Positions 59,916 to 64,000 are shown, counted from the stretch's first letter. The stretch: 64,000 nt of DNA from a virus (IMGVR_UViG_3300046514_000687:47031-111030), one strand, 5' to 3'. Notes: generated from the letters alone by a model not told the origin. Made by a program: numbers and translations.

Positions 59916-62900
59916 ATGGCCGACGGCCTGCTCGACCGCCTGGGGGCTAGCCTGCGCGCGCTGGTCAGCCTCTACGGCCCCCGCGCCGACAGAGCAGCGT
60001 TCGGACTTTTAACCGGCATCCTGCCCGGCGGGCGCGGCGAGCTGTCTCCCCGCGGCACCAACGAGTACCTGAAAGCCTACTCCGAGTCGCCCTGGCTACG
60101 CGCCGTGGTCCAGAAGATCGCCCACGTCGTCGCGACTACCGAGTGGCAGCTCTACGTCGCCAAGGCGCCCCCGGCCGCCCCCGGCGTGACCGGCAAGGTC
60201 TATCAGGACCGCGCCTTCCAGCGCGACAGCGACTGGCGCCGCCGTGCCTACCGCCGCAAGGAGCTGGCCAGCACCGGCGACCTTCAGCAGCTCGACACTC
60301 ACCCCATGCTCGACCTGCTGAACAGTACGAACACCTTCCTCACCGGGCTGATGACCCGCCAGCTCACGCAGATCTACCTGGACCTCGTCGGCGAGGCGTT
60401 CTGGGTCAAGGAGCGCAAGACCAAGACCGGCCCGCCCATCGCCGTCTGGCCGATCCCGCCCACCTGGGTCTTCGCCACTCCCACGCCCATCCGTCCCTAC
60501 TTCGAGGTGCGCTACCGCGGCTGGCAGGTGGAGATCCCCGACACCGAGGTCCTCTGGATGGCCGACCCGAACCCGCTGAACCCCTACGGGCGCGGCGCTG
60601 GCATGACCCACGCGCTTGGCGACGAGCTGGACACCGACGAGTACGCCGCGCGCCACACCAAGCTCTGGTTCCAGAACCGCGCCCGGCCGGACGTGCTGAT
60701 CACCATGGAGGGCGCCAACCCCGCCGAGGTCGCGCGCCTGGAGCAGGACTGGCTGTCTAAGAGCCAGGGCTTCTGGCGGGCGTTCAAGCCGTACTTCCTC
60801 AGCGGCAAGGGCAACGTCCAGATCAAGGAGCTGAACCAGACTTTCCAGGACATGCAGCTTATCGAGCTGCGCAAGTTCGAGCGCGACATGGTGATGCAGG
60901 TCTACGGGGTTAGCCCCGAGATCATGGGCGTGCTCGCTAACTCGAATAGGGCAACGATCACCGCGGCGGACTACATGTTCGCGCGCTGGGTGGTCACGCC
61001 GCGCCTGGAGTTTCAGCGGGCGATCCTCCAGGAGCGCCTGGCGCCGGAGTTCGACGAGCGCCTGATCGTCGACTACGCTAGCCCCATCCAGCGCGACGAA
61101 GACCACGAGCTGGCCGTCGCCACCGCCGCGCCCTACGTGCTGACCGTGGACGAGTGGCGCGAGATGCTGCACCTGCCCGCCCTGCCCAAGAAGCAGGGCC
61201 AGGTCCACATGGTGCCCAGCACGCTGACCGCGGTGGAGGACATCAGCAGCCACGCGCCGCCGCCGCCGACCATGTTCCCGGCTTCGCCGGGGGGCAGGCT
61301 GCCCCCCGGCCAGAAGCCGGGGCTGCTCCCGCCCGGCGAGGCGCCGCCCGCGGACGGCCAGGCGCCCCCCGGCCAGAAGCCGCCCAAGGCCGCGAGCTGG
61401 TCTACGCCCGCCGGCACGCTCGCCGCCCAGGCCCAGTGGCGCGGCGTGGCCGGCATGCTCCAGAAGGCCCAGGGCCACGACGGCTTCATGGTTGCCCTGT
61501 GGGTGCCTGCCGCCAGCGCCGGCCTGCTCGCCCTGCCCGGCGCCGAGCCGCCCGACCAGCTCCACTGCACGCTGGCCTTCTGCGGCCCCTACCGCCAGGT
61601 GCCCGTCGTCCAGCTCGGCGACACGCTGGCGGCGCTGGACGCGCTCGCCGCGGACTGGGCGCCGCTGGACGGCGCGATCGGCGGCTACGGCCAGTTCACC
61701 GGCACGGCCGGCCCCGGCGTGGAGGGGGCGCAGGACGTGTTCTACGCCTCGCTCGACGTGCCCGGCCTGGTCGAGCTGCGCCAGGCGGTCGTGACCGTGC
61801 TGGTCGCCCACGGCATCCCGCCGCTGGCGAACCACGGCTTCACGCCCCACGTCACGCTGGCCTACCTGCCGCAGGGCACCGCGGCGCCGTCGCCGTCGGT
61901 GCAGAACCTGCCGCTCCACTTCGACGCCCTCACGCTGGCGCTCGGCGACACGCACCTGTCGGTCCCGCTCACCGGGCCGCTCTCGGGCGCCATCGTGCCC
62001 CTACCGCTACCGCACCCGCAACTCGCCCCAGAGACCCGCGCCGGGCCGTACAGCGTCAAGGAGGCCCATCCCACGATCCCGCCCGCGGAGATCCAGGCGG
62101 CGCGAGACTGGTGGCGGCAGGCCGTCGCCCCGACCGCCGGCATTGCCGCGGGCCTGCTAGACGCCGCGCCCGTGGGCGCCCCGCCGGCGGGGCGCCGGAC
62201 GAACGGCTACGCGGTCACCCGCTTTAACCCGGTGCACGATCCGCATAGCGGTGAGTTCGCTAGCGGTGAAGGCGACGACGGCGGAGCTGCGTCGCCGCGC
62301 CCGGCGCTGACCGGTCTCGCGCGGCGCATGGTCGAGGTTGACGTAGCCGGTGACACGCTCCGCGACCTATTCAGCAGCGACCCGGATGCGTCTGCCAATA
62401 TCGCCGATAACTACAACCTCAACACCGTGACCGATCGCATGCGGGAGCAGGCCGCGCGCCAGGTCCAGGCGCTCAGCCAATGGACGCTTCAGCAGCGCGG
62501 CGTGCCGGACCCCGCGACCGTCTGGCGCGCGGGCGAAGTGGGCGCCGAGATTGTCAGTGCCTCGTTGGAGGAGGGCGGCGCGCGGTCCTTCGCTCGCCGT
62601 ACCGGGATGGACCAAAGCCGCGTCACTGGCTACACTATCCCTCGTGCCGCCATCCTGGTTGACGTGAATGGGGTGAAGGGCAGCCGTCAGCCGTACCCCG
62701 GCGAGGCTGAGGTACTGGTCCGCGGCGAGACACTCCGTGCCCCGCCGGCGGGGCGCCGGACGAACGGCCACGCCGTCACTCGCTACTCCGCAGACCAGCC
62801 GCGCGAGCCGGCTGGCAGCAGTGCGGGCGGAGAGTGGGCCGGCGCAGCCGGTGGCTTGCCCGCGTTAGCGCCCGCCCCCAGCGACGCCTCGGGGAACTTG

Positions 62901-64000
62901 CTCCACCCGGCCTACGCCTACATTGCCGCAACCGGCTACGCCGACCGTGACAGCGACATTCAGAGTATTCGCGAGGAGCGCGTCCGCGATGCGACGGCGG
63001 CTGACCTGGCCGCTCGCGTGCAGGCCCAGCTCGGCGCGGCGAGTCCCTTCCCCGACGCCGCCGCGGCCTCTGCCTGGCTCCGGCCCCTCCTCGTGGACTG
63101 GGGGAATAGCGCGCGCTCGTCCTCAGTCTTGGCCCTCCACGAGGCTGTGCGCCAGAAGTTCGACCTGCCGACCGAGGCAATGCGAGGTATTGACCCGGTC
63201 CCGCCGAGCCCGGAGCAGCGCGCCCTGGTCGACGCGATCTACGCGAACACGCAGGCGCACCTGGCTGCGGCGGGCATCACCGAACTGACGCTTGCTCGCG
63301 GAGCGCGGGTGCGAGATACCTACCTGCCGTCCGGCTTCCAGTCCGACGCGGATCCCCGCCACGGCGCGCAGCACGTCGATGCTCCCGCGCTGCTCGCCCC
63401 CCTGTCCTCCTGGACCGGCAGCGCGCAGATGGCTGGGCAGTTCACTAGCTTCCTGGCGCAGGCGCCCCGCGACGCGTCGATCCCGCGCACGCGCGTCCAG
63501 CTCACCGCGACGGTCCCCGCAGCCCGGATCTTCAGCACCGGACGCACGGGGCTGGGTGAACTGCGCGGCACCGAGTTCGTGCTGGTCGGGGGACAGAGCG
63601 CGGTGCGCTGGCACGCTTTCGAGTCGGGGGCCGGCTTCGTCTATCGCGCTGCCGCTCTCGCGAGCGGCTTGTCGCCGGTGGACGAGGATGCAGTCAGCGC
63701 CGACTGGCTGCGTGTCGCCCTGGACCACCCGGGGCTGGTCGCCCGCGCCTTTAATCCCGACCAGCCCCGCGACGACCACGGCCAGTGGACCAGCGACGGC
63801 GGCGTAGCGACTCTGCCAACGCCCTCCGGCAGCGGCCCCTCCCCGACGCAGATGGCCAGCGAGCTGCAGGGCCACGATAGCCTCGCCAAGTACACCCGCC
63901 CGGACGGCACGCTGGAGCCCGCGCGCCAGGCCCTCCACGACGCGATCGTCGCCCGCGCTCTCGTCGGCGTCCCCAGCCAGGCCCACCCCACCGCCTACCT
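59916..64000 (+). CDS. HK97-like portal fused to 2H phosphoesterase, two ADP-ribosyltransferase-like domains and the start of a zeta-toxin-like domain (3' partial)
   Basis: Hand translation has no stop to window end; HPMLDLL..YLDLVGEAFW, YGVSPEIMG..NRA, TVDEWRE; HCT 61563 and HVT 61848; R-S-E motifs. Confidence 0.85.
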   Translation, partial: MADGLLDRLGASLRALVSLYGPRADRAAFGLLTGILPGGRGELSPRGTNEYLKAYSESPWLRAVVQKIAHVVATTEWQLYVAKAPPAAPGVTGKVYQDRAFQRDSDWRRRAYRRKELASTGDLQQLDTHPMLDLLNSTNTFLTGLMTRQLTQIYLDLVGEAFWVKERKTKTGPPIAVWPIPPTWVFATPTPIRPYFEVRYRGWQVEIPDTEVLWMADPNPLNPYGRGAGMTHALGDELDTDEYAARHTKLWFQNRARPDVLITMEGANPAEVARLEQDWLSKSQGFWRAFKPYFLSGKGNVQIKELNQTFQDMQLIELRKFERDMVMQVYGVSPEIMGVLANSNRATITAADYMFARWVVTPRLEFQRAILQERLAPEFDERLIVDYASPIQRDEDHELAVATAAPYVLTVDEWREMLHLPALPKKQGQVHMVPSTLTAVEDISSHAPPPPTMFPASPGGRLPPGQKPGLLPPGEAPPADGQAPPGQKPPKAASWSTPAGTLAAQAQWRGVAGMLQKAQGHDGFMVALWVPAASAGLLALPGAEPPDQLHCTLAFCGPYRQVPVVQLGDTLAALDALAADWAPLDGAIGGYGQFTGTAGPGVEGAQDVFYASLDVPGLVELRQAVVTVLVAHGIPPLANHGFTPHVTLAYLPQGTAAPSPSVQNLPLHFDALTLALGDTHLSVPLTGPLSGAIVPLPLPHPQLAPETRAGPYSVKEAHPTIPPAEIQAARDWWRQAVAPTAGIAAGLLDAAPVGAPPAGRRTNGYAVTRFNPVHDPHSGEFASGEGDDGGAASPRPALTGLARRMVEVDVAGDTLRDLFSSDPDASANIADNYNLNTVTDRMREQAARQVQALSQWTLQQRGVPDPATVWRAGEVGAEIVSASLEEGGARSFARRTGMDQSRVTGYTIPRAAILVDVNGVKGSRQPYPGEAEVLVRGETLRAPPAGRRTNGHAVTRYSADQPREPAGSSAGGEWAGAAGGLPALAPAPSDASGNLLHPAYAYIAATGYADRDSDIQSIREERVRDATAADLAARVQAQLGAASPFPDAAAASAWLRPLLVDWGNSARSSSVLALHEAVRQKFDLPTEAMRGIDPVPPSPEQRALVDAIYANTQAHLAAAGITELTLARGARVRDTYLPSGFQSDADPRHGAQHVDAPALLAPLSSWTGSAQMAGQFTSFLAQAPRDASIPRTRVQLTATVPAARIFSTGRTGLGELRGTEFVLVGGQSAVRWHAFESGAGFVYRAAALASGLSPVDEDAVSADWLRVALDHPGLVARAFNPDQPRDDHGQWTSDGGVATLPTPSGSGPSPTQMASELQGHDSLAKYTRPDGTLEPARQALHDAIVARALVGVPSQAHPTAY

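Follow-up and report, generated by a model that had tools for sequence, protein, structure and literature searches.

To our knowledge, it is understood in just a handful of model phages which proteins enter the host cell together with the phage DNA and how they find their way into the capsid, and the question is raised by a locus at the 3' end of the IMG/VR virus record IMGVR_UViG_3300046514_000687 (111,030 bp) from an uncultured phage. We analysed the last 64 kb of this record (record bases 47031-111030, 64,000 nucleotides, hereafter the window), at the end of which an open reading frame (ORF) starting at ATG 59916 encodes a portal protein that continues into a string of putative enzyme domains, some of them preceded by a related peptide (hereafter the linker). 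We propose, with a probability of about 0.7, that this portal gene encodes a polyvalent virion protein, with an anchored enzyme string that is built into the head and delivered with the DNA; in this locus the portal itself would act as the carrier. The proposal rests on the ORF, the domain families, the statistics of the linker and the head-gene context.

The frame from ATG 59916 is free of stop codons up to the window end (1,361 residues). The G+C content at third codon positions (GC3) has a mean of 0.91 and is the highest among the three codon positions in all 30 sliding windows along the ORF, indicating one genuine coding frame and not a chance opening of the kind that is frequent in DNA of 71% GC. 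The start codon follows a Shine-Dalgarno sequence, GGAGGTG, with a spacer of 6 nucleotides. The final 152 nucleotides of the record (window 63849-64000) are the same as its first 152 (record bases 1-152) except for one mismatch, A versus C, that gives Ser or Arg in VPSQAH/VPRQAH. This terminal overlap speaks for a genome of approximately 110,878 bp that is closed or terminally redundant, although the IMG/VR label is linear. An earlier note on this DNA, made from the sequence of the window alone, had suggested searching for the stop codon beyond the contig end; when read through the record junction by way of this overlap, the ORF closes after 1,559 amino acids (aa) with a stop codon on record bases 745-747. 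Two database proteins, P0157 and P0161, match the stitched product with 100% identity and come from independent JGI and Logan contigs (52 and 32 kb), full-length forms of 1,559 and 1,564 aa were found on about 10 JGI/Logan contigs by cluster look-up, and the 1,559-aa protein was also recovered by an exhaustive profile search. The identical proteins, together with GC3 and the Shine-Dalgarno sequence, bear out the claim of the note that the frame is a real gene. The features of this gene within the window are listed below.

59903..59918, plus strand: Shine-Dalgarno GGAGGTG and start codon ATG 59916, read from the sequence; the 18-nucleotide start region occurs also at ORF2
59916..61295, plus strand: portal domain, residues 1-460 (Pfam Phage_portal and phrog_2662)
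61248..61445, plus strand: proline-rich spacer, about residues 445-510, linker-free; the gene is split here in one related strain
61473..61985, plus strand: 2H phosphoesterase domain with two H-x-T motifs (Pfam 2_5_RNA_ligase2; PDB 1iuh)
62214..62258, plus strand: linker 1, a degenerate copy, VTRFNPVHDPHSGEF (motif scan)
62259..62774, plus strand: ADP-ribosyltransferase (ART)-like domain 1, with R in WRAG, S in VSAS, and E-A-E
62775..62837, plus strand: linker 2, long type, ending in YSADQPREPAGSSAGGEW (motif scan)
62838..63737, plus strand: ART-like domain 2, a DRAT-like R-S-E module, one of 7 paralogues
63738..63788, plus strand: linker 3, short type, VARAFNPDQPRDDHGQW (motif scan)
63843..64000, plus strand: start of the zeta-toxin-like P-loop kinase, the rest lying at record bases 153-747 (Pfam Zeta_toxin)

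The domain order is thus portal, proline-rich spacer, 2H phosphoesterase, ART-like 1, ART-like 2 and zeta-type kinase. The motifs from which the earlier note had read the enzyme domains (HCTLAF and PHVTLAY for 2H; VWRAG, VSAS and GEAEVLV for ART-like 1; TLARG, LSSWT and GTEFVL for ART-like 2), as well as the linkers at 62214, 62775 and 63738, were all found again at the positions given for them, and its portal, 2H and zeta-like assignments each scored above the Pfam threshold. The portal domain matched Phage_portal (PF04860) over residues 121-418 (E = 3.8e-37, 128.6 bits vs a cut-off of 39.1) and phrog_2662 (E = 2.6e-60). The 2H domain matched 2_5_RNA_ligase2 (41.7 bits vs a cut-off of 27), and its HCTLAF and HVTLAY segments align to both HxT motifs of the Thermus 2'-5' RNA ligase 1iuh (E = 0.0017). 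In a PDB sequence search with this domain at E <= 1, 1iuh was the only 2H protein returned, with no Acb1 among the matches; the domain may have an Acb1-like role against the cyclic oligonucleotide-based antiphage signalling system (CBASS). The segment before the window end had been taken for the stretch that precedes a P-loop, and the P-loop GGGAAAGKST indeed comes directly beyond the window end. The complete domain matched Zeta_toxin (PF06414; E = 1.2e-24, 87.3 bits vs a cut-off of 22.3), and the solved zeta toxin 1gvn aligns to it at E = 0.0015, P-loop to P-loop, with Walker A and the downstream Asp of the catalytic region conserved. A search of NCBIfam gave nothing further than portal and 2H.

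The two ART-like domains proposed in the note fared differently, the second gaining a family match through its paralogues and modest fold matches, the first resting on its motifs and weak matches only. ART-like 2 (hereafter ART2) is one of seven paralogues in three consecutive genes (one in the portal gene and three each in ORF2 and ORF3, described below), which share 30-53% identity (BLAST E = 1e-11 to 4e-91) and in all seven of which R154, S191, E246 and a Ser-Trp pair are invariant. The ORF3 protein matched DRAT (dinitrogenase reductase ADP-ribosyltransferase, PF07357) with 33 bits vs a cut-off of 25; the portal's own copy gave no direct Pfam match and is tied to DRAT via these paralogues. 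DRAT was also matched by 12 of 36 foreign ART2 relatives (best E = 1.1e-9), and the consensus of the wider family, LYRG..PLSSWS..ExExVVLGG, carries the full R-S-ExE signature. The AlphaFold model of the portal copy has a predicted local distance difference test score (pLDDT) of 75.5, and its sole full-domain PDB matches are ARTs, namely Vis (172 aa aligned, Z 5.1), the Listeria ART toxin 8za7 (Z 4.7), VIP2 (Z 4.5) and C2-I (Z 4.4), at a root-mean-square deviation of 5-6 A and with Z-scores (4.4-5.1) in a range that the tool flags as possibly non-specific. The top three Foldseek matches of the same model were Vis (best E = 0.08). Among BFVD models, ART2 matched a 1,390-aa MuF-domain protein (E = 7e-12), a protein of Bacillus phage SP-15 (E = 3e-14) and, more weakly, annotated phage ARTs (E of about 5e-3); the ART2 profile found nothing among PDB sequences at E <= 10. 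The module is extended N-terminally by about 120 aa of additional helical sequence, and every copy ends, right before the linker, in an invariant acidic D-W-L peptide (W290/L291, window about 63690-63720). Judged by these motifs and matches, ART2 is a DRAT-like R-S-E module with predicted ADP-ribosyltransferase activity.

For ART-like 1, no significant family or fold match was obtained. The two best matches in the PDB search were ART toxins aligned on the catalytic stretch, at weak E-values of 0.6-0.7, the neighbours in the ESM Atlas were ADPrib_exo_Tox clusters (0.85-0.87), and the alignment of ART-like 1 to ART-like 2 by hhalign reached a probability of just 19%. Relatives of stand-alone size were sought for both domains and none were found; among longer proteins, ART-like 1 has a single relative, P0168 (ENA, 1,489 aa), in which the R, S-x-S and E-x-E motifs are conserved. 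ART-like 1 is thus a probable, unproven ADP-ribosyltransferase. The modules of P0168 include two HExxH modules and one MuF-like HPNCFC module, and the joint between its modules is a different repeat, ...HTYAxGHHPNQYIxGxG..., so that such joints appear to be lineage-specific.

The reading of the window covered about one third of the system, since two more giant cargo genes follow beyond the window end.

Record 1073-7426, beyond the window: ORF2, cargo polyprotein of about 2,117 aa from the likely ATG
Record 7426-10455, beyond the window: ORF3, cargo polyprotein of about 1,009 aa

ORF2 starts with an 18-nucleotide region common to the start of the portal gene, and the ATG of ORF3 overlaps the stop of ORF2 (TGATG). 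ORF2 consists of an N-terminal anchor, three ART2 copies, an HExxH module and an end module of DUF3626/L5-gp2-like type that resembles gp2 of mycobacteriophages L5/D29, while ORF3 contains three ART2 copies. The three cargo genes together carry about 14 modules, 7 of which are the paralogous ARTs, and it is clear that duplication and shuffling have moved modules, with the linkers that flank them, between these genes. The anchor domain of ORF2 heads 7 database proteins with varying cargo; it is MuF-like in its position after the portal and in a C-x-x-C...CRC motif, and a comparison with Pfam Phage_Mu_F (PF04233) gave no match at E <= 5; a faint lead came from ESM. The HExxH module (WHELGHVLNHH; record 5483-6379), with relatives in four other cargo proteins, gave a weak PHROG peptidase match (E = 0.028) and nothing in Pfam or PDB; it may be a zincin-type processing peptidase as predicted for polyvalent proteins by Iyer et al. 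(PMC5512222).

The linker peptides that the earlier note had regarded as related proved to be part of a set of 13 in-frame copies, 3 in the portal gene, 7 in ORF2 and 3 in ORF3, with a degenerate remnant, FEPDRPNGTMDGGGAR, at the end of ORF3. The motif is [FYW]-[NDS]-P-x-[QH]-P-R-...-G-x-[WF] followed by a flexible Gly/Ser-rich run, and occurs in a short form, F/Y-N/S-P-D-Q-P-R-D-x-x-G-R/Q-W/F, and a long form, W-D-E-x-Q-H-P-R-x-P-A-G-x-x-x-G-G-E-F, that have a common core. A six-frame scan of the whole genome detected no in-frame copy outside the three cargo genes, and because the motif is missing from the capsid, scaffold/protease and tail genes, nothing ties it to generic maturation sites. 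Among the 150 best ART2-related proteins, 142 linker copies were detected in 51 proteins, vs none in shuffled sequences. Of the 48 proteins that bear linkers in other genomes, 25 have a first copy that ends inside the first 60 residues; a leader or targeting tag would account for this position no less well than a plain cleavage site. The cargo of these foreign proteins includes GNAT, other ARTs, pentapeptide repeats, topoisomerase IB and a lipid-kinase-like domain, and one of them has a Mu-type portal. As a candidate for recognition of the linker we considered a zincin peptidase on the same polypeptide and obtained no support for it: HExxH is present in 10 of 48 linker-bearing vs 29 of 99 linker-free proteins (p = 0.32). 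Prediction of a complex between the protease-scaffold protein and a linker segment gave a score of 0.00, which carries no weight either way. No mention of the linker came to light in PMC5512222, PMC9503650 or PMC5576092, nor in the full-text literature that we searched, a coverage that is incomplete and leaves its novelty unproven.

The ART2 module itself is widespread, with 3,693 representative proteins at E <= 1e-3 in a profile search, mainly long multi-domain proteins. P0007, a 7,059-aa protein on an ENA contig of 83.8 kb, shows 11 matches to the ART2 profile and is free of the linker motif.

All three cargo genes lie within a head module, the gene order being TerS, TerL, a 191-aa ORF, the portal polyprotein, ORF2, ORF3, two small ORFs, a protease-scaffold fusion, the HK97-type capsid protein and, later, the tape measure. 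The capsid protein is nearest to those of Burkholderia phages (47%). Upstream of the portal gene, the following were identified in the window.

56116..56580, plus strand: terminase small subunit (phrog_4044, E = 1.9e-5)
56584..58797, plus strand: terminase large subunit, 737 aa (phrog_2, E = 5e-24; Pfam Terminase_6C; LAGLIDADG_3, E = 1.3e-9)

On this basis the following working is proposed. The portal domain anchors four modules at its C-terminus, namely the 2H phosphoesterase, a small domain that is probably an ART, the DRAT-like ART of arginine type and the P-loop kinase of the zeta family. Within the head module, the portal gene leads the row of three adjacent cargo genes. In known portals the C-terminal end faces the capsid interior. 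The cargo may thus enter the procapsid through its covalent tie to the portal or to a post-portal head protein, ride in the head and be released with the DNA into the next host, where the modules would modify host proteins and nucleotides ahead of any phage gene expression. Twelve copies of about 1,100 residues amount to about 1.4 MDa as estimated from the average residue mass, which is small beside a 111-kb genome, and packing is therefore no obstacle. Exit of the cargo would require its cutting from the portal, for which the linkers are the obvious candidates. The linker might be a signal similar to the capsid-targeting sequence (CTS) of phage T4, that is, a docking site for a head-assembly factor and/or a protease site that separates the modules; its frequent N-terminal position elsewhere suggests that it could serve as a docking leader also or instead.

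Several observations weigh against this proposal. The portals nearest to the one studied here lie on viral and metagenome contigs and share 41-48% identity with it; they are either plain, fused to MuF or bear an intein, and none of them carries an enzyme string or linkers. The cargo is therefore a lineage-specific, young fusion, the fitness value of which is unproven. No cultured phage comes close, the best match among their portals showing 33% identity, and a scan of genome contigs with the portal domain returned no relative. In one 7.9-kb contig from a near-identical strain the gene is called in two, residues 1-466 and 514-1559, and the first piece ends inside the proline-rich spacer with no earlier frame change; the simplest reading is probably a nonsense point change at codon 467 (window about 61314), which would make this a naturally occurring portal without cargo. 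With such an apparent stop directly behind the portal domain in a related strain, the cargo may be dispensable. At the junction of portal and 2H there is no linker and the proline-rich spacer stands instead, so that cuts at the linkers would leave 2H on the portal and this domain may never leave the virion. The AlphaFold2 model of ART-like 1 is unusable (pLDDT 43), and the fold matches of ART2 have the low Z-scores given above. In the zeta domain, HDAIHNT stands in place of EGTGRT of 1gvn, a segment which we take to be the UDP-N-acetylglucosamine (UDP-GlcNAc)-binding part of zeta/PezT; UDP-GlcNAc is thus not to be assumed as the substrate. Finally, packaging, copy number, cleavage, injection and targets are steps that we infer, packaging as head-borne anti-host cargo, the claim of the earlier note, being in agreement with published predictions (PMC5512222, PMC9503650).

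Other explanations were weighed against the same evidence. That the long ORF is an artefact of assembly or sequencing (a chimera, or a stop or frameshift that was overlooked) and the cargo a separate gene is a view to which the 7.9-kb contig and the C6 and G6 runs in the spacer lend themselves, and a stop or frameshift after the portal had been named beforehand as evidence that would overturn the polyprotein; such a split was seen in that contig, but the gene is uninterrupted, as 1,559 or 1,564 aa, on the roughly ten JGI/Logan contigs, two of which give exactly the stitched product, and the GC3 frame signal is unbroken, by which this view is largely refuted. It is also highly improbable that the linker works at the level of DNA or RNA, as a joint at which cassettes recombine or as the trace of an antisense promoter or RNA, and has no function as a peptide. 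The shuffling of modules with their flanking linkers among the three genes is what such a joint would produce; against it, the motif is kept over very different genomes and GC contents, and at the conserved residues of the linker the codon identity was 0.54 vs 0.54 expected from codon usage, and 0.69 vs 0.61, an agreement no higher than codon usage predicts, which points to selection on the peptide. A search for tandem repeats in the proline-rich spacer found none.

A third explanation accepts the polyprotein and denies its injection: the tethered enzymes would act late in the producing cell or inside the virion, for instance in shutting down defence signalling or metabolism before lysis, and the fusion would do no more than secure joint expression with the head genes. 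Judged by their position, these genes are expressed late and at a high level, 2H is not separated from the portal by a linker, and a late-active zeta-type kinase could aid lysis, an idea taken from PMC5512222; free enzymes would do as well, however, without any burden on the portal, and elsewhere the same modules are found on MuF-type and portal anchors, which are parts of the virion, and we regard this explanation as unlikely. Somewhat better odds, though still well short of even, are given to the linkers being docking (capsid- or scaffold-targeting) peptides only, in the manner of the cargo-loading peptides of encapsulins, with the polyproteins staying uncut as one tethered assembly. The leader position in foreign proteins, the flexible Gly-rich run after the motif, and the lack of the motif in capsid and scaffold proteins, which are the expected substrates of a prohead protease, all accord with docking. 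Cargo fused to the portal, on the other hand, needs no tag at each junction, an extension of 1,100 aa tied to the portal could not exit via the channel, and no partner for docking was identified. We retain as the most probable the reading of the portal gene as the source of a polyvalent virion protein whose enzyme string would be delivered with the DNA.

Three further observations were made in the window. The gap upstream of the portal gene, which is locally richer in AT, contains a pair of sites, unique within the window, at 70-110 nucleotides 5' of the portal ATG, listed here without strand as the sequence is palindromic.

59806..59847, no strand: two copies of TTATACGCGTATAA, a 14-nucleotide perfect palindrome, 26 nucleotides apart (4 strand-matches vs 0.02 expected)

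This pair is a candidate operator or late-promoter element. The LAGLIDADG_3 match of the terminase large subunit sits between its ATPase and nuclease parts, where primase and DnaC-type PHROGs were matched too, and the insert probably represents an intein that contains a homing endonuclease. A 574-aa protein encoded at window 53546-55270 matched the PHROG for beta-glucosyl-HMC (hydroxymethylcytosine) alpha-glucosyltransferase (E = 4e-32), which hints at sugar-hypermodified DNA in this phage.

The unusually large set of diverged ARTs points either to numerous targets in the host or to an arms race. The linker, as a short conserved peptide, can be mutated, tagged and transplanted in order to probe the loading and release of cargo. 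We also put forward, tentatively and against the odds, a wider view of the linker as a general, hitherto undescribed cargo signal of tailed phages: a portable leader and joint, CTS-like in action, that would load any domain into the procapsid and mark the cut site, and that would be carried by thousands of uncultured phage proteins, with this phage (13 copies in three head proteins including the portal) as its clearest display. If the peptide is such a general loading or processing signal, virion cargo would become predictable from sequence, and chosen proteins could be loaded into phage heads.

In T4, the internal proteins and Alt carry a CTS that is removed by the prohead protease. The linker would work alike, as a short portable leader on proteins, an ART included, that are predicted to be packaged in the head and injected, and its targeting and cleavage are likewise predicted; it differs in its unrelated sequence and in being also internal and repeated. 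With the DRAT and R-S-E toxins (Vis, VIP2, C2-I), ART2 has in common the catalytic positions R, S and E(xE), the DRAT match of its paralogues and the modest full-domain fold matches, all of them to ARTs, and it differs from them in its helical N-terminal extension (about 120 aa) and its conserved acidic D-W-L tail. The zeta domain has the Walker A and catalytic-region Asp of zeta/PezT kinases (PF06414; 1gvn), whereas it has HDAIHNT in place of EGTGRT, for which reason UDP-GlcNAc may not be its substrate; it also differs in its fusion to a portal, and no epsilon-like antitoxin was identified with it. To the MuF polymorphic toxins of temperate phages (Jamet et al. 2017, PMC5576092) the likeness lies in ORF2, a gene after the portal with an N-terminal head anchor and variable C-terminal toxin-like domains; MuF toxins, however, usually carry one toxin domain, whereas strings of domains are found here, the anchor of the polyprotein studied here is the portal, and the ORF2 anchor is without a Phage_Mu_F match.

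The closest parallel is given by the polyvalent proteins. Fusions of 2H, ART, Nudix and zeta-like domains to portal or MuF proteins have been described, and their head packaging and injection predicted (Iyer 2017, PMC5512222; 2022 survey, PMC9503650), and portal-2H, portal-PBECR and portal-InPase fusions were included among polyvalent proteins by Iyer, Burroughs, Anand, de Souza and Aravind (2017, PMC5512222). The features by which that paper recognises polyvalent proteins, at least two effector-type domains on one polypeptide encoded among the virion genes of a portal-terminase phage, are all found at this locus, and the likeness extends to several effector domains (ART, 2H, zeta-like kinase) being joined to one virion anchor within a head module of the portal-terminase kind. 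The present system differs in having four enzymes on the portal itself, two further cargo genes, seven DRAT-like ART paralogues, and a conserved inter-module or leader peptide that we did not find mentioned in PMC5512222 or PMC9503650. As read from its sequence, then, the portal polyprotein is an extreme case of the known polyvalent-protein strategy, and not a new kind of system.

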